From: Marsupella aquatica
Taxonomy: Eukaryota; Plantae; Marchantiophyta
Direction: 5' to 3'
Assembly: GCA_973895155.1 (NCBI GenBank)
Contig: OZ316893.1
Coordinates: 13,036,359-13,100,358, forward strand
DNA length: 64,000 nucleotides
Shown here: positions 6,801 to 51,355 of the stretch, piece after piece
Layout of the letters: each line of letters opens with the position of its first letter
Position numbering within the stretch: position 1 is the stretch's first letter
Position numbers and translations under genes: made by a program
The notes under the pieces: model-generated
The model's input: the letters and a program-made list of their open reading frames with translations, nothing else
Database searches by the model: none
Told to the model about the DNA's origin: nothing

Positions 6801-7156
6801 TATTCATTTATTTGTTATAATTTGTCATTAACAAACCTATTGAAATGATTGTATGAGTTTAATGAAATGACTGTATTATCTTGTTGATGTGTGCATCACA
6901 GTTTAAAGTAGGAGACATGATGAAACTGAAGTCACCAGTGGATCAGCAAGTGATTGCTATTGAAAAAGTTGATGGAGTATGTGGAGTTGATCGATATTAT
7001 GACAATCCAGTTTCTATTGGCTTCTTGATTGTCAAAGTTGTTTCTATTTTGAATAGAGATGCACCTCTCCAAGAAAAGCACCCAGAAAGGCTTGGTAGCC
7101 CTCAAATATGTGAAGGGGCATCCATTTTTGTGGAGATAGAGTTAATAAGGAAGTAG
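3900..7156 (+). mobile_element. Decayed CACTA/En-Spm TnpA-like gene fragments
   Basis: Broken, intron-separated pieces. KPPENVKPEHWKALCEWW...KMKYARSKV (5438-5641) resembles the Ptta/En/Spm plant transposase domain. 6881..7156 resembles a Tnp1/En-Spm-like C-terminal domain. No termini found. Confidence 0.5.
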
Positions 7157-10100
7157 GATTTGGTAATTGAGTAGTGCTTACAATAGAAAATTCATGTGAT
7201 TGAATTAGTTTCTATAGGTAGCATGGATACTGTTGTGCAACTATAACTCTCAATTTTTGGATTCCTAGATGTGGATCACTCTAGAATTTTGTTGGTGTTT
7301 GAAATAATGATTTACCAAGATTGTATCATGTGTAAAATTTTGTTGATTTTGTATGTGAGACATATGTGAGATTTTTGTTATTATATATGTTTACATTTTA
7401 GGGTTTAAAACTCTAAAACTAATGACTCTAAATCTAGTGATCAATACACTCTAATGTCCTGTCATTTAAGTTCTATAATACACCCAAATTTAGTGATCAA
7501 TACACTACAATGTACTTTCATTCAAGTTCTATAATACACCCAAATCATTATAATTGCAGTGATACTAGATTATGATCATATTATTATAACTATAGTTAAT
7601 AAAGATATGATGTTCGTCATCCATTTTAAAGTTATAAAATAACAACCTATAACATTTAAGATATAATCATATAGCAAATAATAATGGATTGAATGATACG
7701 TCTGTAAATAGGGTCATATAAGAAATAACAAAAGCTCTACAATTATTAATTTAATTTGAGCATCACTGAAGAATGTATATTGTGTATATATAACATAACC
7801 TATATGGTCTAATAATACTATTATAAAGCTCTTAAATAAAAACTCTTTCCACATAAAATCAAATAACATAATATGAATTCTAATCTCCTTAAAAGAATCC
7901 CTATAATAATGTCATCTGATTATCGTGTTTGCATGGTTACATACTGTGATTAACATACCAGTCAACACATCTTGCTCATACACAACACTCGATTAGAGAA
8001 AAATACATCAATATATATGAAATTTCATTTAATTTTATTGTAGAGTAAAAAATATTTTTTTCATTACGGACACAACTATTTTATGTTCAAAATAGCTACT
8101 CTGGATCCAACTAACTAACCGGATAGACTAAATAGAGATTATCCACTTCTGAAGAACGAGATTCAATGACTATGAAGTGCGGCCTATAAAAAAGAAACAC
8201 ATTTCTTAATTAGATATGTCCATGAAGTGCGCTTTTATAGAGCGATATCAAATTCAATGGCCAACATATTTTGTTTCTTACCCATAAGTTCTTGTAAAGG
8301 TTTGGTGCCTTGACAAAAATAGATTTCAAACGGGTCTTTCGATTTGCATAGTTGATATAAGTTTAAGAAGTTTGACATAAATAAATCATTATCTTAATAA
8401 CAAATTTTCTTATATTTTTTAATTGATTTTCATGTTCGGGTCAATAGACAAATCATCAACCTTCCCAAGTAACCAACAGTGGGGTTGGTTCGTCATTCCA
8501 TGAAAAATAGGGTACAAAAATAGTTTACTATGAATTCCATGATTTTTTTGTTGCTCTGCCATGTCTCACGTTGTATTTGTATGAAATATCAAATCTGATT
8601 AGTGAACAATGAGTATATCATATGAATTTATATCATGATAATCCGCAATTTAATACTTAAATAAAAAATGCACAATGTAAAGTTATACTTCAATCAGTTT
8701 TTCAGTTGTACTTACATGTCGAGGGTCTGCCAAATTTGTTTTCAACCAGCAAATCTCAATCACCTACAAATCTCAATCGCCTGCAAATCTCAATCGCCAA
8801 GATTGTACTCATTTATATATGGCAAACAAAGCTCAATAAGGACTTTGCGACCAACAATTTATGTAATGGAAAACAAGCCAATGAGAATGTTAGATCATAT
8901 AGACCAAGACATGCTTTTAGACCCTGCTCTCCATATTGGGTAAGTTTGCTGTGCGTCTTCATTTGGGTGCTAACGTATTGATCCTCGATGTGATTTTTAA
9001 AAACACTTACAAACTCAGACGCCAATTGTGGATATTGTTTTTGATACGCAATAGTTTTCTCTGTTTGGGAGAGCCATATTCAACTTTGTAGTAATGTGCA
9101 TTGCAATTTGTGTTTGTATAACCTAAAATCATATATTTTTATATCAATTCTCATCGCCACATCATCCTTGTGATCAAAGTAAAGAAATATATTTTCAAAG
9201 TGAAGGTTACAATAAAATTAATCAATTATGGGTGTGCAAGTATTGCAACATCTCCAACAAAGTCATGGCAATCTCCAAATATTCCTAAATTTTTTTTATA
9301 TAAATGTGATATCGGCTTGAAAATTGGATTGTGATTTTTTTTTGCTCTTACTCCATTTTTTACACTTATCTATGAAGCTTTCCAAATCATCTCTTATATT
9401 TTAATGATCATAGATAAGTTTTGGTGGATCTTCGATGGTCATTGCCAAGATCCCAAATTCCTTTGTGATTCAATTTTCCCATTAATATTTATTGTATTGC
9501 ATCTATTTGCCTCTTATGTCGATCTCCATCCTTGAATCTTTTTGTAACTAGTATTGCGTTTCGAGGAATCAGTGGACAATCCAAGATATGGCATATGGAC
9601 ACCTATCCTTGGATGTCATTTTTGATGCGATATAAATTTTGCACTTACTCATTTCTCAAGGAATGAATCTTCTTAAGTGCGGGAAGAACACATGATGGAC
9701 ATGTATCTTTGTGATGCCTTTCGATGCCAATCTTCCCAAATTGCATGATCTTATTTGCAAATTTTACATTACTCTTCGTTTTGGCCCATGCTACCTCTTT
9801 GCTTTATTTTGCTAACAAATCTCTTTTGGGTGTGTATAGCTTGGGAATTCTAAGGATTATGAACTCAACCTCATCCAAATTGGCTTCTAACTTGTCCCAA
9901 AGATATAGTGCAAAGTTAAGTGTCAAATGTTGAACAAATCCTTATGGCTTCTCATAATCACGTTGAAATTCAATAATTTTATCTCGTGTCATGTATTATT
10001 CTTTCTTCACATTCTTGTATATCTAACGCACCATCTCATTTAGAAGGTTTTTGTAACCCTGTGTTCCATGCATGGTATATTTTCTCCTCAATTTTCTCTC

Positions 10101-10979: not shown

Positions 10980-12641
10980 AGTGTAGTAGTATATCGTGCT
11001 ATTAGAGTATGTACGTTTGGTATGAGTGCTATTGGAGCCGATAAGGTTCCGTCAGGTTTGTGTGAGAGGGTACTTCTCACTTGTGAGGCATTGAAAGGTC
11101 ATCTTTCAATGTTGAGCCTTGGAGAGAGAGGAGCTTGAGTGTGGCTATGGTGGCTGTGAGCTCCGCTTGTGTAACGTGGATTCCTTGAGTAGTGCAAGGT
11201 GCGTTGGCTTGACATACGTGTGTGATCGGATCGGTGCGGGATCGATGGGGTATTGTTGATCGGGATCGTTGTGCCGATCTTATGGAGATTACATTGAAAG
11301 ATGACATTTGAAATCTGTTGTACGGACTGTGCGGACAGAAGTTCGATTGATTGAGTTGTCGACGATTCGTGGTAGCTCGGATCGTGCGTTGTTATCAAAC
11401 AGATCGTTGGTATCTTGACCTGTATCGTTGTTGTCTGATCGGCCTGCTTCCCGATCGATGTACAGATCTGTGATTGGTGACAGGTTTTGAGTTGGAGGTC
11501 GATTGATGATTCGTGGAGGAAAGCGAATATTGAGTAGATGTTGGACAGTGGAAGTCGATCCGTGAGGCTTCAGATCCGATTGCCGGCTACTGTGAGGCTT
11601 CAGATCTGATTGTCGGCTACCGTGGGGCTTCAGATCTGATTGTCGGCTATTGTTGGACGATGTTGGCAAGGCACAGGTGAAGCGACGGCTCTTTTCCTGA
11701 AGGAACGGAGCTGCCAATGCCCCGTAAGAAAGAAACGAGGGTCAAAGGTGTTGAATCAAGCTGCTGCCAATTCTGTGGAAGGGCTGCGTTTTTCATGAAG
11801 GAAATCGACAGTTTTCAAGAGCTTTTCGTGAAGGAAGTAGTCATTTTAGGGGTCAGGTGTGAGGCGCATGAGGCCACCCATCCCGAAAGTGCTCGCGCGA
11901 GGCGACGCGTGAGGTCACCCATCCTGAAAGTGCTCCCAACCGCGAGCGCAAAGTCACCCATCGCGAGCGCAGGCAGGCGCAAGGTCGAGGTCACCCATCC
12001 CGGGGCTATTCCGAGCCGTGAGTGCGAGGGAAGGCACAAGGTCGAGCACGAGGAGGTCACCCATCCCAGGGCTATTCCCAACCGCGAGCGCTTAACTGGC
12101 AAGTTCTCATCCCAACTTGTGTACACACAAGCTTTGACAACTTGTTGTTTAGATTCAAGCGCCAGGGGAACTTCCCGGTTTGTTTAGAGGCCTATTCTAG
12201 GCCAAATCAGAGGCTGTTTTAGGGTTTTTGATACTTCTAAGTCCATCTAGACTCACAGATTGAACCAATTTTGCCTTGGTTCTCATCTACAACATTGGAG
12301 TGCCATTGTGAAGCCTATTATGAAGGCTCTTCCTTGAACCTTATGCACATTGTCATATTGATTTGCATTTGCTTTTGTGTGGAGAGTTGAATGGTATCCA
12401 TTCTTGTTTCTGGATCCTCTTCACACATATTTCCTGTTTATGCGCCATGTTAGTTTGGTGTGGGCGCTTGATTCCATAGGAGTGATCCGGGTTTGCAACT
12501 GGACATTCTAGTGTGCTGTGTATTTCTCTCTTGGTGATGTTGGAGTGATGCCCAACACACCATGGTGAGTGCTTGTGGTGCTGACAGGGATAGATTGCCC
12601 TTAGGGTTAGCACATAGATTAGATTAGGGTTGGTCACCACG
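10980..12641 (+). other. Putative 5' LTR/leader remnant of the Ty3 element
   Basis: Non-coding, repeat-containing, CpG-rich region directly upstream of gag. It ends in CCACG (12637-12641), close to the inverse of TGTGG after the PPT at 29297, and is followed by a possible PBS TGGTGCTG at 12650. No direct 5'/3' LTR match could be seen. Confidence 0.35.
11561..11650 (+). repeat. 3 x 30-bp tandem repeat
   Basis: cgtgaggcttcagatccgattgccggctac / tgtgaggcttcagatctgattgtcggctac / cgtggggcttcagatctgattgtcggctat. Confidence 0.95.
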
Positions 12642-15107
12642 GATTCTTTTGGTGCTGCTGGATTACCCGATGGACGACGGACCGGTTTCACTCGGAGTGG
12701 GGCACAATTTTGGCCAGCGGCATTGGTAGCAGTCAGCAATGTAGCTTCAGACAGTGATTCTGATGAGGACTCAGTGACCAGTTCTCCTCATCATCAGGTG
12801 GTTGCACCTTTATTGTGGGATATGGACGAGATGTACGGGGCTACAAAGGGCCCACAACAATACTCTGGTGCAGTTGGCACAATTGATCTGGATGACTTCA
12901 TCCAGGAGTTTGATACGTGGTGCGATATGCAGACATTGCGTAACGTCACATTGTTTACCCCTTTCATGGCATGGAAGGGATTATTCCAGCATTTGGAGGG
13001 GCCACCCATGGATGACTACCATGAGTTTCGGAAGGCTCATTTGGTTGAGATTGAGGCATGGAGGCAACATTGGTCACCTAATTACGTGTCCATCACCTAT
13101 GGCACTAGTGTGGCTGCCCAACCCATTGCCACAACTGCTGCTTCTTCTAGCAGCACTAGCCAGAGTGGCACACCATCCATCAGCAGCACTCCAACAGCAT
13201 CCATCGCTACTCCTGCCGGTGTGATTGTGACAGGAACTGGAGGTGCGCCAGCATTTAATCCTGTGGTGGAATTCTTTGAGGTACTGAAGCAGAACTATCA
13301 GGGTGTGAGAACTGATAAGTTGAAGGGTCTTCAGGAGTTCCAACGCAAGACTGGAGAGAGCCTACGTGAGGCATACACACGTATGCGCAGATTGATCACT
13401 GTCACCAAGGGAGTGACAGAGGCTCAGGCAGTCCAATTTTGGTATGCAATTCTGGACAGAGAATTGCGACGCAGAATGAGAGATGTCACTCTACTTAGGG
13501 ATGCAGATCCCACATTAGCAGTTGTTTTCACCCTTTCTGAGCGCATTGAGCTCAATATGGTGAATGAGAAGGTGGTGACTTCTGGATTTGCCAAGGAAGC
13601 ACCAAAGGCTGCATCTACATCCACACCATAGCCTACTGCACGGAAGAGCTAGAGGGAGAAGCCTACTGCACGAGAGTCTACCAGCCAGAGACCTGTGCCC
13701 TCTTATGCTGGACAACAGTCAGGATGTTGGACCTGTGGTGGGGATCATGCACAGAGATAATGTCCAGATCATAGAGGATCAGGGGGAGCATCAGCGCCTG
13801 ATCAGCGACAGTGTGATCACTGTGGAGCTCCAGGACACACCAAGGATAGATGTTTCTCACTCCACCCTGAGTTACGGAGAGGAGGATCTTGTACACATCA
13901 TCAGGGAAGGGGAGGAGGAGGTAGAGGTGGTGGACGTGGTCGTGACATGCCACATGCAGGGAGACAGGGAGGTGACGCTACCCCTGCTATAACCATAGAT
14001 CCAAAGGATGCTAAGATTGCTCAATTGGAGCAACAACTAGCTGCCATGGCTAGTTCCCAGGTGAGACCTAATTCTGGTGATGGGCCATCTACATCCTATG
14101 GACCTTCCACATCCCATGGTCCTTCCACATCTTATGGAGCTGATGGAGACCTTGCCACCATGGGATTCATGTGTGGCACTGCACATATTGATGCATCAGC
14201 AGCTTTGACACGTGGGGCAGCCAAAGCTCTTGAGCCCCAAGGAGCAGTAGTGAAGTTAGATCCACAGAGGGGGGATGCACATCGGCAGACAAAGCTTCCT
14301 CAGTCTTTTATATTGTCAGAGATAATTCAGACTACCTCTATGAACCCGATTCGGACAAACCCTAGCATGGGTAAGTTGGCAGAATTAATTAGTGATGCAG
14401 CAGGGATGACAAGTACCCTACTGGGGGCGGCTACTGCCATAGTACGCACCCCATTATTTTCAGCGACAGACATGCTGAACTAGGGAGTTGGTCCTACAGA
14501 AGTGTTCAGATTGGCAGCTACATTCTGTGAGGACACTCCAGTGGTTGCTTCCCATGCAGAAGCAACTTGCAGTGTTGAAGCAGTGAAGACCATGCCACCT
14601 ACTGCTACTAGTGAGACATGGCATGCAGCAGCAGTGAGGTTGGTGGATTTACCAGCATGCCCTATATTTGAGAGGACTAGGTTTAAACCTAGTGTTGTGT
14701 CATTGGATAATCGAACTGGTATCTTCCGATTAGTTGGGCCTTCTGGAGCAGTATACCAGCCAGAGAGAGTGTTACTGGATACTGGTGCTCAGCCCTTGAT
14801 GTTGGGAAAGTCTGCCATACATGGATTGGGATTGCGTCCAGAGGATTTGGAGGATTATCCCTTTCCCATTCAGACTTCATTGGGGGGACCTACACCTACA
14901 CAACATATCACCAGGAGACCACTTGATTTGAGGATTCAGGAAGGTCATACCACAGATAGCTCACAGATACAGGCACGAGCTATTCTGACTAAGGCAGAGT
15001 CATATGATGTGTTGGTGGGATGTACAATGCTCTACCCCATGGGATTTATTCTTGATTTTTGGGAGGAATCAGTGTCATATAGACCTGATTGGCAGTCAGG
15101 AGATGCT
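12630..15107 (+). pseudogene. Ty3 gag + aspartic protease portion of the polyprotein
   Basis: Single frame with stops at 13629, 13650, 13758 and 14481. Contains a Gag MHR-like motif (FQRKTGESLREAYTRM), zinc knuckles CWTCGGDHAQR*C and CDHCGAPGHTKDRC, and protease motifs VLLDTGA (D at 14778) and YDVLVG. Confidence 0.9.
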
Positions 15108-16972
15108 TATAAACGATAAAAATTACACCGGCGATATTATAGTTTTTTTTAGGTTTAGAAGTGTCAACTAGAGGTCAACCAAGAGTATTTAGGAAGTAGT
15201 AAGCAAGGACCAGTGGTTATTCATTTTGTTGAGATGACAGAAAGGCTGGAAGTAGGGGAGGCGACGATCATCTTGATTAACGGTCGTGTAGGAGTCGAGT
15301 TCTGCTATGAAGGCTGCGATGGCCTACTAGCAGATGGCAGAGTATGTGCCTTAGGCACAAGAGCTCGACAGAGAAGGCAAGGGGGGGGCGAATATAGGAA
15401 CCCCCGTTAGCAGGAATCGGTTAGCTCATGAGTGTAAGTCGCTAGGCGAAGGAGTGCCTATGTTCATGTTCACTATTCGGATCAAAGAAGGAAGCTGTCG
15501 TGTATGGGATGCGGCGGGGCAACAATTGTTTGGAATGAAGGGCGAAGAGTTCCGCCAATGATTCACCACCGGCGAGGCCATCGAAGAACTCTGTAGAAAG
15601 GTCATGCGGAAGAAATGGAATCTACTGCTAAGACGGGAGAACAGCCACGATCAGCGGATTACGTGGCGATTAATCACCGCCAAACAAGTAATCGTGGCTG
15701 GCGAACCGAGCAACCCCAAGGAAGATGACAGAAGTCAGGAGGTCGAGGCACATATGGCAAGATTAACAATCGAAAGTCCGGAAGCTTCCGGATCAGGCGC
15801 AACCGAAGGGAATCGAGGAGGCCGTTGCACAGTTCAGTAACCAGGAAGACAGAACTTCTTGACATAGTAATCAGCAGTTCTTGGCTTCCACTCATCGTTC
15901 TGGTAGGCATTAGTTAGCGTTCTTGATGAATGAGCGAAGGAGATCAAAGAGGGGGCGCGAGTCGTCCAAACTGTAATCGGCGCACCCCAAGAAGTAGTAG
16001 AGGCCTCGGGCAAAGACGGACGCGAGGCATAGGTATTTAGAGGCTGTGGAGCGCTAGGCGCTCTGTCACTGTTTGCTAGAAGTCTGGGGCAAGGGAGAGC
16101 TCCACTCACCTTAGGAATGCCAGCAATTTTGTAATAGTGTCCCTACTCAGTTGAGTAGTCTTTGAGTATAAAGAGAGAGTTTGGAATGAATGCAACAGAG
16201 TGAAGTACGCACTTGAGCAGTGAATGAGACCGTCAAATCAGAGAGAGAGAGAGAGAAGGAATTTGCCTTATGCAGCAAGTCGTTACTCGTTAATCGCAAC
16301 GATGAATGAATATCGTCTCATTGCGAACCAGAACCTTACGGGCCAGCGCCTCAAGGTATAGGTTGAACAGACAGCTAGTGAGAAGCGGTGTCTGGTTGGA
16401 GATAGTGTGTTTTGAAGGCGATACACTGGTCGTCATACACCTCCATCATACAAGGGTAAACGTGATACTGGGGTACTTGCTTAGGGTAACCCTGTCATAG
16501 TCACCCACACAATCCGGAAATCAATTGCCAGGCAGGCTGATTCAAAGGACAGTCGGACTTAATTAGGTCACGGCTACTAAAAACCATGAACGCAGACAGC
16601 AGTGACGACAAGTCTTGCTCCTTGATTACCTTAAGATCACTGGAATTGTGGATCTGTTCTATCGGCACCCATCTTATTTCCCGTCAGTTACTATACGAGA
16701 ACATTCCGATTTGCTTGATCACTTACCGCGAGTGGTGTGGGTTCATTGAGATTGTGTATAGAGAGGGGTTAGTGTTGGCCGAGGCTGAAGTGCCTAAGAA
16801 GTGGAAGACGGAACTCGACATTCAAGAGCACTTGGTCGGATTCACTTACGGGGACTGTGTCGAGATAGACGGAGTGCCGCCTCTCGAAGGTCGGTTAATC
16901 GTTTAAATGAGATTATTGAGGAGAAGGTAGTTAAACGGCCATTAATCGCAAGGTCGAAGTAGGCGTTTAACA
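15108..16972. mobile_element. 1865-bp solo-LTR-like insertion with 5-bp TSD ATGCT
   Basis: ATGCT at 15103-15107 and 16973-16977. Termini TATAAACG...CGTTTAACA form an imperfect inverted repeat of the TG...CA type with a G>A change. Removing the insert and one TSD copy restores the host reading frame. Confidence 0.8.
15235..15700 (+). pseudogene. Degenerate RPA70 C-terminal-like (Zn-ribbon OB-fold) ORF inside the insertion
   Basis: Frameshifted pieces FCYEGC...VC...AHECKSLGEGVPMFMFTIRIKEGSCRVWDAAGQQLFGMKGEEF...KKWNLLLR echo the Rep_fac-A_C pattern (YxAC..C..C..C, F.e.ae.llG.sa.el). Confidence 0.5.
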
Positions 16973-16977
16973 ATGCT

Positions 16978-18489
16978 CGATTGAGCAAATTGCCAGTGAC
17001 ATTTAGTGGACCTATGGGAGGCCCTAAATCCACACCATTGTCTTTGGCAGCATTCAGTGGTGTAATTGCTGGACCTGATGATTTGATTGAGGGTAATGCG
17101 CATGCAGCCAATGTTCCACCATTGGAGGAGTCTCATGAGGAGCACATCATGCGAGGATTACCTGTTGGCAGTGTTGTGCCACCAGTGTGGGGCACTGCAC
17201 AGGCCTTGCAACAGGCAACAGCACGATTGGTACATGATGCATGGCGTCATGCTTTTACACCACAGTCAGGAGTAGAGCAGTCTCTTGCAGATGGACCTGT
17301 GACTCTTTCACCATTGGATACCACTCCTATTGCTTGGCAGTATCCACCGGAGGGTATTTGTTTGTTGGATCTTTTTGGTGGGATTAGCACTGGATTGGCT
17401 GCTCTTCTTCAGGCAAGAATTCCTGTGCGTCGTTATTTGTATGTGGAGACAGATGAGACAACACGGAGGGTCTCATTGCGACATGTGGCTATGTTGGTGG
17501 ATAGATATCCACAGTTACTACCAATGGATGCTGTTCGTGGTTATCAGCATGCACTACCTGCTGATATTTCATTGTTGGGGGCGGATCATCTACATCGTGT
17601 TGGCCCCATTGATTTGGTGATTGCTGGTTGGCCATGTCAGGGCCAATCTAGAGCTGGCATTGGGCATGGACTTCATGATCCACGCTCTACATTGTTTTGG
17701 GAGATGTTACGGGTGCTGCGTCATCTCCAGCTACATCAGACACAGTCTCTAGCATACATTTTGGAGAATGTGCCATTGTTAGGTGATGATCGTAGTCGGA
17801 TTGTTGCCAGTGTTCACCAGGTGAGGTCTTGGATTGGACTTGTTGTGTTATTGGATGTTGCACGTGTGGATTCTCGTGCACATTGTCCACGCTTGTGGTG
17901 GACTAATTTGATCCCATGTGAGGTGCTGAAGCGCGCATTTGACAGCATTCCACGCTCACCAGCCTTAGTGGTGGATGATATTTTGGATCTAGGGCGTCGT
18001 GCACAGGGTGTGACCCAACCTGATAGACCTCCATTGGCAATGGTCAATGCAGTTGGGTGCCCACATTGTGCATTACCCACTCTTGTAAGCCACTCTACTT
18101 CATATGCATTCAGAGCAGGTGGCCCTGGACTTGTATGGGACACAGCTCTCCAGCAGTTAGTGGAGCCTACTGCTGATGAGAGAGAGCGTGCTATGGGATT
18201 TTTGACTGGCACCACTGCAGTTGCCTCTATGTTAGAGTGTTTGCGGCGCCAGGTTCTTGGTCAAGCAATGAATTTGAATTGTTTGACTTGGATTATCAGC
18301 TTGGGAGTAGTTGAACAGTTGCGGATGCACTCTGCCAGAATTACTGATTATCCCTTGGTGAGCTTGCGGTCCACTGAGACAATATTGACCACAACTGGGG
18401 GTGAGCAGACAGTCCATGGACCTATGACAGGATTGGTGGCTGCACAAATTGTTGAGCAGGAAGGGACTGCTCAATCTACTGCTAAATAG
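16978..18489 (+). pseudogene. DNMT3-like C5 cytosine DNA methyltransferase domain within the retrotransposon pol frame
   Basis: Motifs in canonical order: I LLDLFGGISTGL (17362), II YVETD, IV IDLVIAGWPCQG (PC at 17632-17637), VI ENV (17764), VIII AH[C]PRLWWTNL (17881), IX ERERAMGF, X RRQVLGQA. They closely parallel the DNMT3 catalytic domain. Confidence 0.92.
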
Positions 18490-18534
18490 CAATCATCGGC
18501 TATCTCTTCTACCCTACAAAGAGATATTAGGGAT

Positions 18535-18930
18535 TTGGTGGAGAGTTGGGAACCACAACTTGGCCCTAAGTTAACAGGGGAGGAGAGACGTCGCATGCAT
18601 CGATTCCTGAAGAGTTATTGGAATTGTTTTGCATTCAGCATGAAGGATTTGGGGACATTGAAGGGCCCTGGTATTCAGATTGAACTGGCTAGTGATGCAC
18701 CAATCTTTCGTAGACCATACCGTTATAGTGACATGGAGAGAGCTCTGATTCAAAGTAGAACTCAAGATTTGTTGGAGGCTGGATTGGTGGAGATTTCATA
18801 TGGGGAGTATGCATCTGCCATAGTGATGCCAGCCAAGAAGGATGTGCATGGCAATTACACAGATAGGCGCATGTGTGGTGATTACAGACCTATTAATCGC
18901 TAGACAAAATCTGATCGATATGCCATGCCC
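18535..18930 (+). pseudogene. N-terminal part of Ty3 reverse transcriptase, truncated by an insertion
   Basis: PIFRRPYRYS...LLEAGLVEIS...YASAIVMPAKK...RRMCGDYRPINR*TKSDRYAMP, in frame with the DNMT domain across one TAG. Ends abruptly at 18930. Confidence 0.92.
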
Positions 18931-19829
18931 CCCGGGGTCCTCACTTAATAACTTCCGACCCATCACGCGCGAATAAGTATAGGGTTTTTTAATTCAATTT
19001 TCTAGAATACTTAAGAAGTTTTGTGGAAGAACTATAGGGGTTTAAAATTAAATCCCGCAACTTAGAAGTATAGTAGGGCAGAAAAAAACCTTGCTCTTCA
19101 ATATAAGTTGTTAGTATAAGATAGGGGTATTAGCCAACAAAATATATGGGGTATACGTGTCAATCTTTTATTGGTCCACGTGGCAAATTCCTTTCATAAC
19201 TTGGTTTAGGGGCACCATGTGGGGGACCATGTGTACTCCATGGCCAATTTGGGTCAAAATTTAAATTATGGGTGTGAGCGGGAGGTCATCTATGAGGGGA
19301 GAAGAGCAAGGGTCAGGCGCGCAGGTCGAGAGCCATTTAGGACCATCGATCCAGGTTAGTGCCGTTTGTGTCAACATCATGCGGCCATACATTGGTAGGA
19401 CAGTCCATTCTTTGTTACTTGCAACGAGACTTGCGGCGGCCATGCAGGGCCTGATTTAGGGTAAAATCAAGCAGCGATGATCCAACCATCCGTTTGTTGG
19501 GCCATCGGTCGGCTATGGTTTGCCCTGGCCATTTTGAGAAGTTCGTGAACGTCTTGCAGCGTTTTGGGCAAAAATTGAGAGGGTGAGTCGCGAGGGTAGG
19601 GGCTAAACGCTGCCTCGATACTTTTCGAAAGGAAATGCATGCATGCTGCAGGGCGCTGCGATGCACTGATTGAGGAAGGTTGAAGATTGATCGAGGGCGA
19701 GATGACTGTGGATGGAGCTGCTGTGATCGGGGGGCACTAATTGCTGTGATCGGGGAGCTTTGCTGTTTGGGCTCAATGCTGCTTCGATACTTTTCCGAAG
19801 GATTTGCATGCATGCTGCAGGGCTTTATA

Positions 19830-20330
19830 TTGAGCTGCAGCTTGATCGGGGGCGGGGCTGCGACTTTACATTGAGCTGCAGCTTGATCGGGGGCGGGGCT
19901 GCAACTTTACATTGAGGAGCTGTGATCGGGGGCAGGCTGCAACTTTCAATTGAGCTGCTATGATCGGGGCTGCAGCTTTTGATTGAGCTGCTGTACGTGA
20001 TCAGGGGACAAGATTGAGCAAGGCTGAGATTGATCGGGGGGACAATTGTTGATCGAGCTGCTGCTGTGACCGGGGGAACTTTTTGTTGAGCTGGAGCTGG
20101 GTCGGGGGCGGCGCTGAAAATTTCAATTGACTGAGGAGCTATGATCGAGGGTGGGGCTGCAACTTTCGATTGCGCTGCTATGATTGGGGTGCTGCAGCTT
20201 TTGATGGAGCTACTGTGATTGGTAAACCTAGATTGGGAATGATGGAGCTATTGTGACCGGCAAACCTATGATTGATCGAACCTGTGATTGAGCTGCTATC
20301 ATCGGCAAACGTGTGGTCGAGTTGCTATCA
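19830..20330 (+). repeat. ~41-bp GC-rich tandem repeat, degenerating rightwards
   Basis: ttgagctgcagcttgatcgggggcggggctgcgactttaca at 19830-19870 and a near-identical copy at 19871-19911, with further diverged units carrying gatcgggg. Confidence 0.85.
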
Positions 20331-20537
20331 GAGGGCAAACCTACTTTTGGTGGAGTTTTCTATCCATTGCTCTTAGTGCTTTTGAATTGCCTATGCTGTG
20401 TGTCCTACTTTTTGTATAAATTGCACTCGTGATGTTAAGGGCAATGCTCATTTGTTTGTATGCTTTTCAGTTTACTTGTTGCCACCTTACGCTCCGCAAA
20501 GAAACTTCTCGTGCCATGCATCTCATCGCTAGTCTAC

Positions 20538-20800
20538 TCTATTGCTCGCTACTCTGCTCTATTTCTTGCTCTCTGCTCTATTGCTCGTTGCTCTGCTCTA
20601 TTGCTCGCTGCTATGCTCTATTGCTTGTTGCTTTGTTGCTCTATTGCTCGCTGCTATGCTCTATTGCTTGTTGCTTTGTTGCTCTATTGCTCGCTGCTAT
20701 GCTCTATTGCTTGTTGCTTTGTTGCTCTATTGCTTGTTGCTCTGTTGCTCACTGCTTTGTACCTCGTTGCTCTGTCGCTGCTCTGTACCTCGCTGCTCTT
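20538..20800 (+). repeat. Higher-order minisatellite (20+23-bp subunits, 43-bp period)
   Basis: ctattgctcgctgctatgctctattgcttgttgctttgttgct repeated exactly at 20598, 20641 and 20684, flanked by degenerate monomers. Confidence 0.95.
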
Positions 20801-22108
20801 TTGACAGTCCATGCCAATGTTTGTTGTGCAATACCTTGCTTACCCATAGCTTCATTTGTTAGCCAGCTTTCTCCTCATCAAGCCAGCTCCTTTGTCCTTG
20901 ATCATGTGAGCTAGTGTCGAGAGCTCCTAAAGAATCCATGTCTGTATCTCCCCCCTCTTTTGCAAGCAGATTTATGAGAGCTTGTCCTGCTTGTAAGGAT
21001 CCATTGAATGATGGCTTAGCACTCCAGATGTTGAAGTGAGAAGGAACTGGGGAAGGAACTTACCAAAAGTGAACACATTTAAGTGAGAGAAATGCCTGAA
21101 CTGCAGTCGCTGCACATGTTGATCATACTAAAAGCTCATGTTCGGGTGGCAGTCCAACTCATTCCAAGTTGGCAATAGAGCTTGGACAGGAACTCTGAAT
21201 TCCATGGATTGCTGAAAATCAATTTAGAAATAGAGGCTTTGACTTGGCGCAAGGGAGCTAATTCGATCTGCAAGTGCCATTTCATTCGATCTGCAAGTGC
21301 TTGTGGTGGAGTTTCCTCACTGTCCTGCTAGTTTTGAATTGCTTCCTTTGATTCATTCTGAGTGATTTGATTTTCTTGCTCAATAGAATGTCCTGTCAAT
21401 CATCTCCCTCTCTTTGTTGCTCTTGAGTTCCCTTTGCTTTGTCTAGGAGACTTAGATAAACTATTAGCTCTTGGTGAATGCAATATGTGGCTGTTCCTCC
21501 AAGGCAATGGAAGGCATTCGTTTATACAAGGTGGGCATTGGTTTGAGTTGTGACTGAGGTGATTGTGGCTGTGATCAAGGTGCAGCAAGAGTTTTGATCC
21601 AAGTAGGGGAATAGCAGATTCGCCCTTGGTACAACAGAATCCCTAGAGGCACTATTGTTTCTCCTCTGCCAGCTTGTGTGACATTCATTTGGCTTTGTGT
21701 TGTGTAGGTTTTCCAACCAAAGGTTCTCTTCAACATCTATAACTTGGAACCAGTATTATGCAGTTTGGTATGCCCTGACCCTGGCTCTAGCTGAACTCGA
21801 ATTGAAATTTAAAGTTGAATTTCAGTCAGCCTTTTCATATGCTCTTGACTTGTCTTGCAGGATGGATTGGCTTAGGATGTAGTGGAATCATCTGAGAAGC
21901 TTCAGCAATATACCAGGGTTCACATGTGAAGATTGTGGAAGGAGCAGGATTCAAATATCACCATTTGCTGCAGCTACAATCAAACAAGAGATTGATTAAA
22001 GGTATGATTCTATCTAGGATGCTTGTAGTTGCAAGTTACATAATATCAATCTACTGTTCAATATATGTTGAATGGATGTTGAGGGGTTGCAGAACAAATG
22101 TTGAGTGA

Positions 22109-22823
22109 ATGGATGGGCCTGTGTGCAGAGGTAAAACCACTATCCAAGAAGCAGAGATGGCTTCTGATGTGCCCAGGATTGACATATTTTCCCATAAGGA
22201 GCACCACCGCATGGACCCCCCTTGCTGTTTCTTTTGTGATGAGACAGACGATGTGGTTTTCTGTGATGGGCCTTGTAGTAGACATTTTCACTTTGTCGGT
22301 GGAAAAGGTATGCATGGGCCTAATTGCACTCCTATCACATTGCCTAAAAACAATGACTGGAGGGCACCTTGGGTTTGTACACTCTGTGCTGCTGGTAGAG
22401 CTAGATGCTTTGCTTGTGGCCTCATTGGCAGATTTGAACATCCCACAGCAGAAGAATCTCTTGTGCTCCATTGTGCCCACCCTGACTGTTTTTCTCATTA
22501 CCACCCTGGTTGCCTTAGGGTGCACACTTATGGTTGGGGCACTGCCTGAGAGGTTTCATACAACAAAACCAAACAGCCTAATGTGCCCAAGGCATTTCTG
22601 TGAGTACTGTAAAGTCTACAAGGATGGTATTAAAGACTTTGTACAGTGTCGCAGGTGCCCTCGAAGTTGGTGTCATGATGAGAAACTTGGGGGAGTGAAA
22701 CACCTCAGGAGGTGTGTGAAGGGCAGGGACCACTGGGATGTGGAAGGGTGGCATTTCATTTATTGTCATAGGCATGCAATACCTGATGGGGAATTGGTTC
22801 CTGCACAGCCACATACCTCTTAG
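22109..22823 (+). pseudogene. EDM2/NSD-type composite (triple) PHD finger module, frameshifted near 22540
   Basis: CFFCDETDDVVFCDGPCSRHFH...WVCTLC...CFACG...CAHPDCFSHYHPGC, then in the next frame CPRHFCEYC...FVQCRRCPRSW...FIYCHRHAIPDGELVPAQPH. This parallels the plant EDM2 PHD region (CRRCPKSYH...LIYCQEHEID). Confidence 0.8.
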
Positions 22824-23088: not shown

Positions 23089-26000
23089 ATGGCTACCCAG
23101 TTTGTAAAACTATTGCACAAGAAAAGAGATGTGGTGACTGATGGGAAAGATGAAGAACCTATAGCTGTGTTGGCCTTCAAAGAGGGACAAACTTTAGCTG
23201 ATTTTTGAAGTCGAATTCCTGATTTGGATGATTTTGATTTTGATTTCTGGGATTATAGGCTTCCTGGTCGCATGAAAGTCAAGAGTGAGAAAATGATTGA
23301 GTTGTCTGAATTGGATGGGAAAGTTGCTGTCATTGAACAAATAGGATCCTTGCCGACTGGTAGAACACAGTTTCCATCAGTATCTCCTACTGTCACCCAA
23401 TCGGCTGTAGTGAACTCTTTACAGGGTGAACAGCTTCATGAAGCTCCCCCTATGAGAGCTTCTTTTGAGTCTCTTCTCATGTCTCAGTCGGCTGTCAAAG
23501 TCTAGAATGATGAATATATAAGACTAGAGAAGTGGATTCACAAGAATGGTTATAAAGCTCATAATTGGAGAATTCAAACTTGGGATGAAGGACAGGATGT
23601 GAGAGGCCATCTAGAGTGTCTTGAGTGCAGAGTGATCTATGGGAGGGCAGACAATTCACAAGATAAGAAGTCAATTGCTAATTTGTTCAGCAATTTTAAG
23701 ACCAAGCACCTTGCCTTTGCTAAACACAAAGACAATTACTACAGGAGAAGGGGCATTGCTATGACTAGGGTCAAGCCCTCAGATCTTGCACAGAAGCCTG
23801 AGTTTGATTATGAGGGGGCCATAGCAACTGGCCTAGAGATAGTCCAGACTCTGAATGTTGAGTGTGGAGGTGATGATGAGCTATTTCATGTGCCCCCTGT
23901 GCCTGGTGTAGCCAATAATGCAAACAAGTGGTTCCTTTATAAGGTTCGTTGTAAAATCTGTGGGGCAATCATGGATTTGGTTTGTAAGAAAGGGACTTTG
24001 GACCACAACCTGAGGACACACTTGGTCAGTCGGGGTCATCTGGATGTAGTTGAAGCCAGAGAGAATACTACTGAACTTGCATTGAGATCTGGAAAGAGGG
24101 GCAGACCAAGGAAGCCAGATGAGAGGGATCAACATCCTTCACAGAATTCAATTTTAAAATTCTTCAAGGAGGATGCTTCCAATGCAAGCAGTAGCTCTGG
24201 CACAGGTGGGTCTATAGACATTGATGTGGGCTTAAGTTTGCTCTGTTGGGGAATATGGGATGAATTTGTAGAGTGGAAGAATGTGAAATATGCTGTGAAA
24301 GGTATCTTGCATGATCAACGTGGTGGACATGTATGGGATTTAGATGTTGCAGCCTCTGTTCATGTCTACAATCCCGTCACCAATTCTATTGTACATATAG
24401 AAGGACTATTTAGGCATAAACATTGCTGTAGGTTGTCCTTGTATGGTGGAGGGTTTCTGAACCTTACTTGCAGTAGATGTCATGCTATAACACTAGAAGA
24501 TGACTTTTGTGGGCGGGTGCACAGGGAAGCGGAGGCTTTAGCAAAGAGAGGGGGAAGAAGCACAGAGGATGGTTTGAATGCACGTTATTTGACACGTCCA
24601 GAGTTGACCACACAGATGCATGGTCTGAATGTCAAGAGAAGAAAGGAGAGATGGTTGTTGGCACAACAGACTCAAAAAGTGTGTGCCCTTAGTACTAGGA
24701 AGAGAAAATTGCAGGAACTGTTAGGAGTAGCTGCAGACAGAAAAGATTTGAGACTTTTTCTAAAAAATATTGTCAATGGTCATAGGAATGGTGCATTTGG
24801 TGGAAAAGAAGGTCTTTGGGATTTTTTGAAGGATGTAAGTAGAAATTTGGAGAGAAGTGCAAGGGGGTTTCGTTACAGTCAAAAAACAAAAGCCATAGCT
24901 CAGGCTATGTTTCAGTATGGGGGCCGGCAGGTGGCCCATGTTTTTGCAAGAAATTTAGCTGGGCCAAGCCTGAAGACATTGAAAAGAGATAGAGCAAAAT
25001 TTGTGCAATTTCGTGCTGGAATTAGACCAAAAACATTCAAGGAGGTGGCTCGGATTTTGTCTGCTGCAAAGGAGATGCTAGGAATTCAAGGCGATGTACC
25101 TATCATGCTTGCAGAGGATGAAACTAGGATAAAGGAAAGCCCAAGGTATGTTTGTATATCATAGCATTTGAAGCTTATTTGTGATACATGTAGACTTTTT
25201 ACTAATTCTTTATATCTGACTTACTTTTCATTGGGCTCTATGCAGGTGGGAGGCCAAGTATGACACTCTGATTGGTTTCTGTGGCCATAAGGATGAGCAT
25301 ACCTGTGAATTTGGACTGGAGATTCTTGTAGGTGACGGTGAGGATGGCTATAATAAGATTGTAAATACATTTGAGGATTATAACAAGGGCATGTATGCTA
25401 GAGTTGTCATTGTCAATCCATTGCATGTTGGAATGCCAAAGTTGGCCCTCTGTGCTATATCTACCTGTAACAAGTTCAAGGCAGAATGGGTTCGAGAGCA
25501 TTGGGTGCAATTAAAAGAATCTTGGGATGTGCACTACAGAGACTTTGTAGTCCTTTGCTTGGGCATGCTAGTGATGGTGATGCAAGACGTAGGAAATTGA
25601 TGCTAGAAGACTATAGAGGAGCAAATGGCTCTTACCCTAGATTCTGTGTAGGGTGGGAAGGATGGCCATATTCAGTTGCCATATTGCCTAATGGGGACCT
25701 ATACGGTTTTGGTGATCAAGACCAGCCTCACAATGGGAAAAAGTTGATTAACCCACTAGATCGAGTGTCCTCAATAATGGCACTTGGAGACCAACATGCT
25801 TCTTTGTTTCATGTTTGTAATGTGTACAATCGCTATGCAATTCATCAACATGGATTAAATTGGGATGATGTGAACAGATCTGATCGTCAAAATTGGGCTG
25901 GTCCCCAAATAATAGCATCCGAAAAGGTGCGTGATTGCTTAGCAAATCTGCATGTAAGAACTGATCTATCGTATGAGCGAAGTTTGGGGACAGAGTTGTA

Positions 26001-27648
26001 TCTGCAGGTCTGTGCAGATTACATTGACATTTTCTACTCCCAAAGATATAACCTGAGAACCAGAGTGAAGCTGGCAGGCAAAGTATCTTGGTTCTTTCGA
26101 TTGTGGAGGTTGTGGTTGAGGTACGGTGATCATGCTGTTGGTGGAAATATTGCTTCACATACAGAGAAAAATATGATTTCAATCCAAGCTTTTCATGATG
26201 TTAATATGTCTTGTCAATTTGTTGTGTTGCTTGTGTGTGCATTTTGTGATAAGTTTTCTCACTTGTGTATTCCATTTCATGAATTGGGTTCTGATTGTTG
26301 TGAGATCTTTTTCAGCAAGGTAGGTGGAATGAGTGGCCATGAGAGGAATTATGATTTTGGCTCTTTGTTGGATAGTGCTGTTGGGTTGAATCGTCTTGCT
26401 GGATTAGAATGTGGACCAGAGGGCTTAAAAGTAGCTCGCTCACATAAGAAGCAAGATCATGTGTGGGCCAAGCTTCATCCTTTACTTGAAGGTGAAGATG
26501 CACCTAATCTTTTTGATTACTCTGGAGTGCAAACTAATGAGTTGGTGGTTGCAGCATTGAAAGAAGGATTCGAAGAAGCAAAAGAGTTGCTAAGAAGGTT
26601 ACAAATGTCTCCCTGGAGTGATCTTCTAGCAGCAAGAAAGCGATGGTGGACTCACCCTTGGGATGTGGAAGTTGAAACATGGCCAGATTCAGCTGTAATA
26701 GAAGAGGTAGTTGTTGCTGATGATTCTGAAGAGCATGTAGAGCACAGATCTCCAATTGGACCTCGTCCAGAAGGAGAGTTTCATGAATTTGAAGATCCTG
26801 AGGAAGATCTAAATCGAATTGATGCATGGTTGACAGATGAGTTAACCATTCCTGATGATGTTTTGCAGGATGGGGCTGAGTTAGACATACCAGAACCTCA
26901 TTCTGTAGAGGTAGATACTTTGGGGCATGAGGTTCGTCATGTTCTATCTTCTGTTGTGGCTGAGCTTACAGAGTCTATTTAGAGCCCTGTGCAGGAAAAG
27001 AAGAAGGTTTTGCCTACAATTACCTATGAGGGCAGAACAATTTACAAATCAACTTTGGTGAGTCAACTAGTGGGCAATCCTCATTTGTCTAAAGATAGGC
27101 TAACAAGGGTGAAGCAAGTGGCATACTATAATCTTGGTAAGAGAAAAAAATGTGATCCAAATACTGTGACTTGTTTTGTTGATGTTGGGAGTGATTGTGG
27201 AGTAGCTTTTGAAAGTGCTAATGATGCAGGCCCTTCTACAAGATCAAAGAAGGGGAAAGGTAAGGGAAGAGGTAAATCTAGGATTCAAGAGCCAGTAGTG
27301 CAAGCAAAGAAAGAATTTTGGGTTGGTCGGATTATGATGATGAGACAGAAAGTTAAGGGACAATGGACTAGAGTGAGATCTGCTATTGATTTGCTTGACA
27401 GACCAACACCTCCTCATGGACACGAAGGGAGTATTTGTCAGTTCTTGTTCAATTGGTATAAGCCAACAAGCTCAAGCAAAGTTGAATTCACTTATGATAC
27501 AACTGATTTACAATGGATTGATATAGAAATGGTGATGATTAATGTTACTCTAACCATGAAACAAGGGATTGGTTTAGTGTATGTGTTAGATCGAGTTGAT
27601 AAACAAGCTTTGGATACTTATTTGGAGACCATGTCTAGAGTTGAATGA
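23089..27648 (+). pseudogene. Large P-element/THAP9-like DDE transposase gene with N-terminal C2H2 zinc fingers and an AT-hook
   Basis: ATG at 23089; stops at 23206, 23503 and 26980; GT-AG intron at 25146-25245; frameshift near 25548. Motifs: CLEC..H..H, CKIC..H..H, KRGRPRK, GFRYS...GPSLKTLKR, LAEDETRIK...YDTLIGFCG, HASDGD, DQPHNGKKLINPL (DxxH), DRQNW, ADYIDIF, LGSDCCEIFFS. Confidence 0.75.
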
Positions 27649-27693
27649 TTTGCATGCATCAATAGTCATGGTAGCGGTTTTAGTATGTAAGAT

Positions 27694-29121
27694 GTGAGAG
27701 TGTTGGAATATCTATGCAGTAGTTCTATTGTTGGCAGTGTTGATGCCAAGGAACGTGATAGGGTTCTACAGAGAGCCAAGAGGTTTCGATGGGAGGGAAA
27801 CCATCTTTTTAGAGTACTGCATGATGGTAGGATGTTGGTGGTACCAAAACCATCACAACGAGTACATTTGGTGCAACATGCGCACGAGGAGTTGAGTCAC
27901 TTTGGTGTGAAGCGCACTTACAGCTTGCTGCAGACACAGTATTGGTAGCGTGGTATGCACACTCATGTCCAGCAGTTGATAGCTAAGTGTGTGGTATGTG
28001 ATAGAGTGAGAGCATTATTTAATGCTCCCACTCCCCAGTTGCACCCGTTACCGATCATGGGTTTGGGATATCGTTGGAGTTTGGATTTTGCTGGTCCATT
28101 ACCTCTTACCCAACGCCATAATCGGTATGTTTTGGTCATGGTGGAACACTTCTCCAAGTGGATTGAGCTAGTGGCATTGCCAGATAAAGCCAGTGGAGGA
28201 GTTGCTGCTACATTTTTGGATCGTGTACTCAGTCATTTTGGAGCACCAGCTGAGGTGTTGACTGATCAGGGAACTGAGTTCCGTGGAGAGTTTGAGAGTT
28301 TGTATGAACAAGCTCTGATTGATCATCGTACTACCTCTCGTGATCATCCTGAGGCAGATGGATTAGTTGAGAGAGTTGTGCAAACTGTGAAGAGAGGATT
28401 GCGTAAGTAGGGCTTGCAGGTTGGTCATCTGGGAGATTGGGATCTCCAGCTACCTTGGTTAGCTATGGGCTACCATTTCAGTCGGCAAGCATCACTTGCA
28501 TCCTTCTCACCCTACTTTTTGCTCTATGGTAGAGAGCCAGATTTGCTAGCAGCTATTCGTCGTGATGCTGCACCAGTTGTGAACTTGGATGATCCTGATA
28601 TTTGGGTCAAGGTGTGTTCAGAGAGAGCATGGGTATTTCAGAGAGTGATGCCCATGGCTTTTGACAACCTTGCCATTGCCCAACATTGTGATACTTTGAG
28701 GTATGCCACTATTCGTGGAGGAGGTTACCGTGCAAGCATTCGATGATTTCATTCTGGTGATTATGTTTATTTGCAGCAGACAGCACCCACGACACTTGAT
28801 GTGACCGCAGGCCGGACAATCTTACGTGTACGTGAAGTGTTGCCTTCTGGTGTCCTGATGTTGGAGGGACGCGATGGTATGGTTTGGAAGGATCATGTGC
28901 GCAACTGTGCACCATGTCACCTTCCCAACATTGATGGTACAGTAGATCCAAGCTTGGCACATGTTCGTGCTGGCTTGAAATATATGTTGTGTGGATCTGC
29001 TCAGGGAGCAGCTACTATGTTGATTTGTGATAAGTGTTCTAGAGGATGGCACATGTCATGTTTGACACCACCATTGCAGGTGATTCCTAGTGGATCATGG
29101 TTGTGTCCTCAGTGTCGGTGA
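27694..29121 (+). pseudogene. Ty3 integrase (H2C2 + rve core) with C-terminal PHD finger
   Basis: HEELSHFG...CVVC; WSLDFAGP, LTDQGTEF, DGLVER. One frame through stops at 27946, 28408 and 28744. Ends [Y]MLCGSAQGAATMLICDKCSRGWHMSCLTPPLQVIPSGSWLCPQCR*, a C4HC3 finger with the first Cys changed to Tyr. Confidence 0.93.
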
Positions 29122-31479: not shown

Positions 31480-33690
31480 ATGGCGATGATGCGAGGTCCT
31501 GCCCTTTGGTCTCTCTTCGTGTTTGCGGTAGCGTTGGCGTGCTCGTCGAGCGTGAGCGCCAGCAAGGGCTCCGTTCTCCGGACAGTCCATAGCCCCAGCA
31601 AATGGTCCGTGTGCGGTAAGATTCTACTGGAGTTGATCGACCTTTTTTCTAGTACTTTCTCTGCATCTTCGATTGGGGTGTGCTGAAGGTTTGATTCGAA
31701 TTTTCTCGTCAGTGGAGCGAGAGCTAGGGTCTCGGAATCTGGCCTGGACAATAGAAATTTGCTTTTAATGGTTATGTGCCGTTTGAAGGGAGTCCGGATG
31801 GTGTTGGTGGAATTGCTGAGGTTATCGTCGGAAGGATTTGAGAATGAGAGTGGGCAGAGATGATTTTGTTATTAATTTGTTGAATACTTATGTCTAGGGG
31901 ACGTTGGATCCTATGGGAGTCCAATTGGGCGCCTAGGTATCTCAATTAGCGAATGATGGAGTCAGAAACTTATCAGAGGGTAGATTGGTTCGTGCGAAGG
32001 GCAGTTTCTCTCTAGGATGTGTTTATGTTACTGAACAGATATGGTGGATTTGACGAAGAAGTTCAGGCTTGTCGAGGGAGTTTGAATGGCAGGAAAATTG
32101 CTCTGAAGGGATCACTAGGCAAAGAGTCATTGGCTGTGTATTGTATTGATTGCTTCGTGTCAAAGATTTGTCTTTTACAATTCTTGCTTTTTGGTTCTTT
32201 GGTGAATGGATCCGTAGGGCAGCCCTCAAGGTACAGAAATTTAATGGTCAAACTATCAGACGTAACAGATGTTAGTTACTAACCTGTCTTCTTGCACATG
32301 CAGCTTCTAAAACCTATGCCGTGAAGATCGAGGATGTGCAGATATCGCCAGATCCCGTTGTTGCTGGACAGTTGGCTACCTTTACCATTCCTGCATACGC
32401 AAGTGAGGATTTGAAACTTTCATGATGTTTCGAGTTCATGTTGTTTCGAGTTCATGTTGAGACCTGCACTGTTCGTTTGGAATAGAATTGACACATGGTC
32501 AGACTGCGGTGATCAGTTTTTCTAATCTATGAAAGGTTTGTCTGGGTTCTCTTTCCTCAGGTGATATTCTTGTGATATTGTAGACAGCCTCTCCCTGCGT
32601 AAGCCTTGTAGTGTCTGTGCCCATCACCTCGTTTCTGCAGTATGTGTTAGGGAATGTGGGATTATTAGTGGCGGTCATTGTTTATGGCTGTTGCTGAATT
32701 GATCTTGCGGAAAGTTCGGTACTTTGACAGATTTAATGATGTCTTCCGTGGTCCGTTTAGAAACTATGGCTTTTTGTATTCTCGTCTCCGTAGTTTTCTC
32801 GGTCAGGATTAGTGGTGAAAAAGTCTTTAAGGAAAAAATTTCTTACGCAAAGCAGAGATGTGGCAAGGGCATGTCAGAAAGGTTCTTCACCACCTCAAAG
32901 TTTTTCCAATTGGTTGGGATAACATATGCGCATCTATTTGTTCGGCCATTGTTGCCTCTAATGTTTGGGCTTCCCGTTCAGATGAGGAACTCGAGGGAGG
33001 GACAGTTGTGGTGACCGTAAGCTTCTTGGGAATAAACGTGCATACAGAGAAAGATGATCTCTGTGCGAAGTCTAATTGTCCAATCAAAGGAGAGTTCACG
33101 TTGAACAGTGCAGAGTTCCTGCCGCAATTTACCCCTCCTGTAAGTGATTGTGGTCTTTATCTCAATGAAAGACATGCCCCTGTGCAACTCGCTCTACTTC
33201 ATGCTCAGAGGCTTAGTAAAGCATTACCTGCCATTCATAAGTGGTATCCTAAAGTGCCTTCTTTGTGGTCGATTTGATATTTGTGCATCTTTAGATTCTC
33301 TGTCTTGCATGGTTGAGTTAAGTGTCGCTGGCTTAAATTTGGCAATTAACGTATGTATCTCTTCAAGACAAGCTACAGTTATACCTCTTTACTGTGATCA
33401 CCTTCGACCTCTCAAGACGGGCCGGGCCGAGCTACGAAACTCAAAACTGCACTGTTCAATTTTAGGGCGGTGTGTATTACTAGTGTTCATCAGTTGTTGA
33501 TCATCGGTTTTTGGTTTGACAGGGTTCATACAAGCTGAAGTTTCAGGTCTTGGACTCTGCTGGTAAGGAGCTGACGTGTGCATCTATTAGCTTCAGCATT
33601 GTGTGGAGGTCTCAGTTTGAGCAGCTTGCTGAGGCTACATCAGAATTGCAGAAGAGGTTGCGCATGCGACCATTGAAAGCCCTCATGTAA
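31480..33690 (+). CDS. ML-domain (MD-2-related lipid recognition / NPC2-like) secreted protein, 4 exons
   Basis: Exons 31480-31615, 32304-32402, 32982-33139 and 33523-33690, all GT-AG and in phase. Signal peptide, then WSVC...VKIEDVQISPDPVVAG...DLCAKSNCPIKG...PQFTPPGSYKLK...GKELTCASISF. Confidence 0.92.
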
Positions 33691-51305: not shown

Positions 51306-51355
51306 GATTTCTAGGTAGAGCTGCTTTTTTCACGTTCTTCGTTGTTCTGAGCTCA

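Follow-up and report, generated by a model that had tools for sequence, protein, structure and literature searches.

A stand-alone EDM2-type PHD module gene in a P-superfamily-like DNA transposon of the liverwort Marsupella aquatica

The stretch analyzed here, a 64,000-nt window of a Marsupella aquatica contig, is eukaryotic DNA rich in repeats and holds one transposable element nested in another. The outer element, recognized by Pfam, is a Gypsy element whose 5′ part (12618..18930, + strand) encodes gag, protease, a DNMT3-like methyltransferase and the start of the reverse transcriptase (RT), and whose 3′ part (27691..29121, + strand) encodes an integrase (PF17921, PF00665) with a canonical PHD finger at its C-terminus (PF00628, E 2.6e-11). 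The RT frame ends after the motif RYAMP, and the left end of a DNA transposon starts at 18931; the Gypsy sequence picks up again at 27691, directly 5′ of the integrase. At this junction (27690/27691), which is marked by loose contig ends at 27691 in two runs, the inserted element lacks its right end and the Gypsy element lacks its RNase H and the remainder of its RT, so that the target-site duplication (TSD) of the window copy cannot be read. The original prediction took the landing of this transposon inside another element as a sign of heterochromatin targeting; a single insertion in a Gypsy element is no evidence for that.

The DNMT3-like cytosine methyltransferase of the outer element (16963-18489, + strand; best match DNMT3A in a PDB sequence search, E 4.5e-10) sits between protease and RT, and no paired LTRs were found in the 64,000-nt window. 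In both respects the element resembles KnitGypsy-Dnmt3 of Klebsormidium, for which DIRS-like repeats are described (PMC5890265), and a land-plant Gypsy with a DNMT3-like domain and an integrase PHD would extend that report. The pol region also contains a 1.8-kb insert (about 15110-16970) that is not CpG-depleted (0.91) and, as read by eye, is flanked by TAAACG ... CGTTTA. Elsewhere in the window are a LINE-type zf-RVT piece (1956-2777, + strand), a spliced host gene (31480-33690) that encodes an ML (lipid-recognition) domain and lies 2.3 kb away from the nested elements, a region of ~18.8 kb with long inverted-repeat pairs and subterminal tandem repeats (37146-55957) that includes RPA-type OB-fold pieces (40500-41320), and Helitron-like Pif1 helicase pieces (61223-62734, - strand).

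The inserted DNA transposon begins CCCGGGGTCCTCAC. Its TIR-like left end (18931..18960, + strand) resembles the starts of the terminal inverted repeats (TIRs) of two related loci, L001 and L004, and thus places the PHD module gene described below inside the element, as had been claimed; since the right end is missing (no right TIR was found in the window), the left end is the sole basis for this placement. Short tandem and dispersed repeats of families D2 and D9-D14 lie in the left arm (19600..20800, unstranded). The P-superfamily-like transposase follows on the + strand. Its first exon (23089..25145), aligned with homolog P0016, has its own ATG and carries stops at 23206 and 23503. A predicted GT-AG intron (25146..25245) corresponds to a gap and frame change relative to intron-less homologs, and a second exon (25246..27648), traced by homolog alignments, holds the catalytic region, a frameshift near 25550 and a stop at 26980.

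The transposase has no Pfam match above cut-off. Its Atlas neighbours at 0.95 are of P-element type, with TNP-like RNase H and GTP-binding domains (PF21787/PF21788), for which direct Pfam search gave only E 0.13, in 1 of 18. Residues D723, D844, D894-x-x-H and E1089 are invariant in alignment A2, and we take these to correspond to P-element motifs. A PDB sequence search with the transposase profile returned nothing meaningful, and no THAP domain was matched in 21 transposase homologs or the window pieces, where other Cys/His motifs are present. The C-terminal domain (26983-27648) is conserved (KSTLV...NP.LSKDRLT, W.GR, W.D); a BAH-like identity, suggested by eye, found no support from PDB or Pfam and was dropped.

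P-superfamily-like transposases of ~1500 aa also occur in liverwort genomes and metagenomes, and distant relatives in other contigs and, by Atlas, in basidiomycetes. One of the distant relatives (P0022) ends in a PTM/DIR17-like Tudor domain (residues 1066-1119, E 9.7e-10), possibly another reader on this superfamily. L004 is a complete relative with 49-bp TIRs, an 8-bp TSD, one gene and no module, while L001 has TIRs beginning CCCGGGGGG and no clear TSD. In L001, 3.3 kb separate the transposase from the right TIR (L001:5734-9065), with a 174-aa open frame of no Pfam family (7003-7527) that is possible other cargo. The carrier resembles the P superfamily (P, 1360, Galileo, THAP9) by way of its Atlas neighbours, with their RNase H and GTP-binding domains, and of its relative L004, with TIRs and an 8-bp TSD as in the D. 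melanogaster P element (PMC3698922), whereas its ~1500-aa transposase, lack of a THAP match, CCC/CTC-GGGG ends, plant hosts and second gene set it apart. The carrier is of interest in itself: in the mostly open-access literature covered, neither P elements of bryophytes nor P-like elements combining TIRs with an 8-bp TSD in sequence associated with bryophytes were found.

Upstream of the transposase lies a gene for a stand-alone EDM2-type PHD module (22157..22823, + strand; ~221 aa, with one frameshift), delimited by its frames, PF22908, a profile and intact homologs. Two overlapping frames (22109-22549 and 22518-22823) together encode three linked Cys/His fingers, and the tail reads IYCHRHAIPDGELVPAQPH. 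The first piece matches the Pfam family PHD_NSD (PF22908) at E 2.3e-6, above the curated cut-off. Run against all six-frame pieces of the window and of 50 related loci, a profile of 76 relatives matches these two pieces alone (E 1.4e-30 and 5.2e-13). The canonical PHD of the Gypsy integrase, unmatched by this profile, is unrelated, in agreement with the earlier remark that both nested elements carry chromatin-reader cargo.

Two intact homologs were found, one of 247 aa (P0025, representing a cluster of 3) and one of 226 aa (P0028). Both have Met-Ala at the position of the window ATG 22157, which is therefore a likelier start than ATG 22109, where the range given originally begins and which is rejected here. 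The window module and both homologs stop a few codons past the tail. A profile search of proteins of 55-433 aa yielded no further close intact homolog (5 matches among 421 candidates); two other relatives (P0026 and P0027) are broken. The frameshift reflects one extra base in the window copy (22524..22526, + strand): one base fewer is present in 68%, 93%, 100% and 100% of the contig depth of the four runs, and some window-identical contigs cross the break unchanged, in the downstream part only. Further upstream, acceptor-like and donor-like sites delimit a candidate exon (21861..22001, + strand) that is probably untranslated, and divergent contigs match blocks near 21837-21946 and then again from 22122. 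The splice-like sites, those near 22002 and 22130 among them, suggest that untranslated exons precede the module.

The transposase starts 266 nt past the module stop on the same strand, just as predicted. This proximity, together with an acceptor-like site near 23052, upstream of the transposase ATG, is what would be expected if splicing joined the module and the transposase in one reading frame, as a PHD-transposase fusion. We consider such a fusion highly improbable and saw no sign of it: three lineages share the position of the stop after the tail; the transposase possesses its own conserved N-terminus, matching the beginning of homolog P0016 from Riccia; and Pfam detects a PHD in 0 of 21 long transposase homologs (833-2375 aa, among the best 7995 candidates scored). 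Given these observations, the shared Met-Ala start of the homologs and the transposase's own ATG at 23089, the module is, judging by sequence, a separate small gene of ~221 aa with its own start and stop, not a transposase domain.

Finger 1 (22226..22387, + strand; from the alignment) is a C4HC3 finger with 8/8 ligands. It is directly followed by finger 2 (22406..22595, + strand; PF22908), a C4HC2H finger of EDM2/NSD type, also with 8/8 ligands, which spans the frameshift. All 16 ligands are thus present in the pattern of EDM2, a C4HC3 finger and then a C4HC2H finger (PMC3776765). Finger 3 (22599..22775, + strand; from the alignment) has one degenerate zinc site and continues into an EDM2-like tail to 22820. 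Its second site is intact; in the first, Cys replaces His as the fifth ligand and the sixth is missing, with Asp, Lys or Glu at this position vs Cys in EDM2. Overall, the module keeps 23 of 25 conserved Cys/His columns, the conserved His between fingers 1 and 2 is lost, and the P.RDH tail is kept in small part only, with its final His missing in P0028. The three linked PHD-like fingers and IYC..H tail noted at the outset are therefore confirmed by the frames, PF22908 and the 76-relative profile, with fingers 1 and 2 complete; finger 3 and the end of the tail are less intact than was supposed. Finger 1 of both intact homologs retains an acidic residue before the first Cys and a CD-GG-L-CD pattern, features typical of unmodified-H3 readers.

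We modelled P0025 with an alignment-based fold (pLDDT 76.6; a single-sequence fold reached only 34.8). The best structural matches of the model are NSD PHD5-C5HCH tandems, aligned to fingers 2-3 (Z 6.7-7.5, all Z being <8; rmsd 2.2-3.9; 74-88 aligned), and two of these structures were solved with H3 peptides. Foldseek gave no match to the model at E<=0.001. By sequence, a PDB search with the first module piece gave chance matches only, and one with P0025 gave a single NSD1 match (E 0.002). The PHD5-C5HCH tandems of NSD1-3 have, like the module, a Cys at the fifth ligand, whereas the module has lost the sixth; NSD methyltransferases also contain SET and PWWP domains, while the module protein consists of fingers only. 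We infer that finger 1, or the finger 2-3 tandem, may bind histone H3 tails.

The window copy itself is decayed, its transposase having three stops and a frameshift where contigs differ. We surveyed other copies in contigs from four runs of two organisms, which include many divergent copies of the stretch. Contig depth at the module gene amounts to 0.65-1.12 of transposase depth and to 8-55x that of the lowest upstream bin, ratios that are a hint only and not a copy number. Two X4 records (25 and 26) bridge the interval between the module gene and the start of the transposase; 13-17% of their letters differ, and the spacer has been replaced. Loose ends at 22230 read ECDEGGTVL by eye, which is P0025 sequence; hence, a P0025-like lineage is present in the same runs. 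Divergent copies such as those of the X4 records retain the gene beside the transposase, and the break is missing from most of the contig depth.

To describe selection on the module, we considered 40 of the 82 variant rows of the gene, of which 5 beside indels were dropped and 35 classed. Fifteen of the 35 substitutions are synonymous and 20 nonsynonymous, against an expected synonymous share of 0.21-0.28 (p 0.002-0.039), and dN/dS is about 0.34-0.51. None of the 35 alters a ligand, and 7 of the 20 nonsynonymous changes fall in the linker after the finger 2 helix. Shifted-frame controls gave 10/35 and 11/35 synonymous, so that the margin of the real frame is modest; in the transposase, 17/35 are synonymous. 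The intact module homologs are 56% identical, and the frames are open in three lineages, which is a firmer argument than the synonymous excess. Together these patterns point to purifying selection on the module.

The module was found in 0 of 50 related transposon loci, of which only 12 are informative, having either a complete left arm or 1 kb of sequence before the projected start; three pairs among these look like duplicates. The gene was thus added in a single lineage and is dispensable for transposition itself, as L004 with its TIRs and TSD also indicates. That related transposons manage without it, that the window copy, P0026 and P0027 are broken and that the synonymous excess is modest would all suit a neutral captured host fragment copied with the element (Pack-type cargo). 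We regard this as very unlikely, because frames remain open at 56% identity, ligands are kept while linkers and the spacer diverge, and 25-31% identity to any host protein is too distant for a recent, still-open neutral capture. Where Pack-type cargo would show near-identity to a host gene and neutral decay, the module shows this low identity, open frames and a synonymous excess. With many copies and intact homologs as well, it is not confined to this copy, and it is very probably not neutrally decaying sequence but a real, maintained accessory gene of the element.

A search of 1.84 billion representatives returned 95 matches, which after the three close homologs are plant EDM2-like proteins. 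Named clusters among them include EDM2 of Cryptomeria and Physcomitrium, and seed-plant proteins with RFD and PHD were also matched. Among the 47 of the 95 matches scanned for domains, RFD is present in 10/47 and SET or PWWP in 0/47. No module was found in viral and prokaryote contigs, and the named homologs of both transposase and module come from liverworts. The EDM2-like affinity proposed initially thus holds, and the best matches are not unrelated PHD classes.

A quick tree of 84 rows (17 of 101 dropped as partial) gave the module no firm position. In two more careful trees, built from 36 and 29 selected rows, the module clade has 100/100 support on a stem of about 4.3 changes per column and groups with liverwort paralogs of the Mp1g03210 type (100/99 and 98/99, respectively). 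However, a tree placing it beside canonical EDM2 was not rejected (AU p=0.097), so that the sister relation to these paralogs is tentative. The paralogs (the Marchantia Mp1g03210 group, with Riccia and Calypogeia) share with the module a DPP motif before the first Cys and the absence of EDM2's ELP domain, and differ in being mostly 620-770 aa, with a long N-terminal part and 28-31% identity to the module. The closest host relatives thus appear to be plant EDM2-family proteins, best a liverwort ELP-less paralog group, from a member of which the module was probably captured.

We also noted a second group of stand-alone EDM2-type modules of 170-260 aa (P0031, P0037, P0039, P0049, P0051, P0064, P0100, P0124 and P0125), on short contigs and with several members broken, which may be cargo of another element family. 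The union of this second small clade with the module clade (92/90) bears the mark of two long branches drawn together, and we place no weight on it.

Compared with Arabidopsis EDM2 and ELPs, the module shares the atypical order of a C4HC3, a C4HC2H and a third finger, and the IYC..H tail. It differs from EDM2 in its size (221 aa vs about 1300), 26% identity, location in a transposon and degenerate finger 3, and it is without RFD, ELP domain, and acidic or Pro-rich regions: no RFD was matched in the window or, by Pfam, in P0025 and P0028, and no ELP methyltransferase-like domain in P0025, P0028 or the window. As a reader of H3K9me2, EDM2 works together with ASI1/IBM2 and EDM3/AIPP1 to favour transcripts of full length at RPP7 and IBM1 (PMC7529245, PMC4980392; further sources on binding and full-length transcripts are PMC9292364 and PMC3632883). 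The parallel with EDM2 drawn originally thus extends to family affinity. Since the nearest host group is without the ELP domain, the RNA-processing role of EDM2 does not transfer directly.

The module protein has no effector or known DNA-binding domain and would hence work either by way of a partner or by competition. If selection on the element maintains the gene, the benefit should go to the element's own family, and the simplest source of specificity is the transposase; for this reason, we tentatively place first the possibility that the module acts as a separately encoded reader-adaptor between the transposase and H3K9-methylated chromatin. The module protein would be a chromatin-reading partner linking the transposase to silenced, H3K9-methylated chromatin; the transposase, binding the element ends, would supply its element specificity; and reader and transposase together could help the element to leave silenced donor sites or direct its insertion towards heterochromatin. 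Of these steps, the element specificity and its use in excision or insertion have the least support. A separate PHD protein that partners a transposase has a precedent in RAG2. Against the adaptor, readers known to serve in targeting mostly form part of the integrase or transposase itself, an arrangement also seen in the outer Gypsy.

Alternatively, the module might be an anti-silencing helper that mimics or out-competes a host EDM2-like reader on H3K9-methylated copies, in trans like VANC, and so permits full-length transposase transcripts or loosens silencing. EDM2 itself promotes full-length transcripts (PMC7529245, PMC4980392), plant DNA transposons have separate anti-silencing accessory ORFs (PMC6446971), and an effector-less reader is what a decoy looks like; in addition, the element is CpG-depleted and its transposase gene has a predicted intron. 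We nevertheless find this somewhat unlikely, as the RFD and ELP regions of EDM2 are missing (0 matches in the window), the nearest host group is also ELP-less, and a pure histone reader with no evident specificity for its own family would share the benefit with every silenced element. The CpG depletion (0.13-0.22 vs 0.72 in the neighbouring host gene) fits a history of the element in methylated chromatin under either the adaptor or the anti-silencing reading.

Histone specificity may also have changed, in view of the very long stem (about 4.3) and the loss of a zinc ligand in finger 3. The gene might instead be maintained for fingers that have given up histone reading and bind DNA, RNA or a non-histone protein; this would be compatible with these changes, with the loss of the His between fingers 1 and 2 and with that of most of the P.RDH tail, and PHD-like fingers with non-histone partners are established. 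The acidic residue and CD-GG-L-CD pattern kept in finger 1 of both intact homologs speak against this reading, which we judge unlikely. Our ranking is therefore the reader-adaptor, followed by the anti-silencing mimic or decoy, a non-histone role, neutral cargo and, last, fusion. More broadly, it is quite possible that a land-plant branch of P-like transposons has recruited the histone-reading module of a host EDM2-like protein as its second gene, a RAG2-like partner that brings the transposase to heterochromatin or neutralizes the host reader, with the second clade (P0031, P0037, P0064, P0100) being a sister family or a repeat capture.

Besides the module in its proposed role, mobile-element genes that deal with host chromatin include VANC of VANDAL elements, TET/JBP of fungal DNA transposons, PHD and chromo fusions, and RAG2. 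VANC is, like the module, a separate accessory ORF inside a DNA transposon, but one that recognizes DNA motifs; TET/JBP is an enzyme. Readers fused to transposable elements have been described in 823 gene models, mostly with PHD and chromo domains (10.1101/2021.11.30.470311), and Rehavkus has a PHD within the transposase where VANDAL has a separate anti-silencing ORF (PMC6446971). We found no publication on an EDM2-type module carried by a transposon in the mostly open-access literature covered. The gene bears on how cut-and-paste elements deal with heterochromatin or aim for it, a question settled for few families. The 221-aa module would represent a natural minimal EDM2 module kept by a transposon, and it makes testable, in Marchantia or in vitro, both its own binding target and the idea that a reader encoded separately may guide a transposase.
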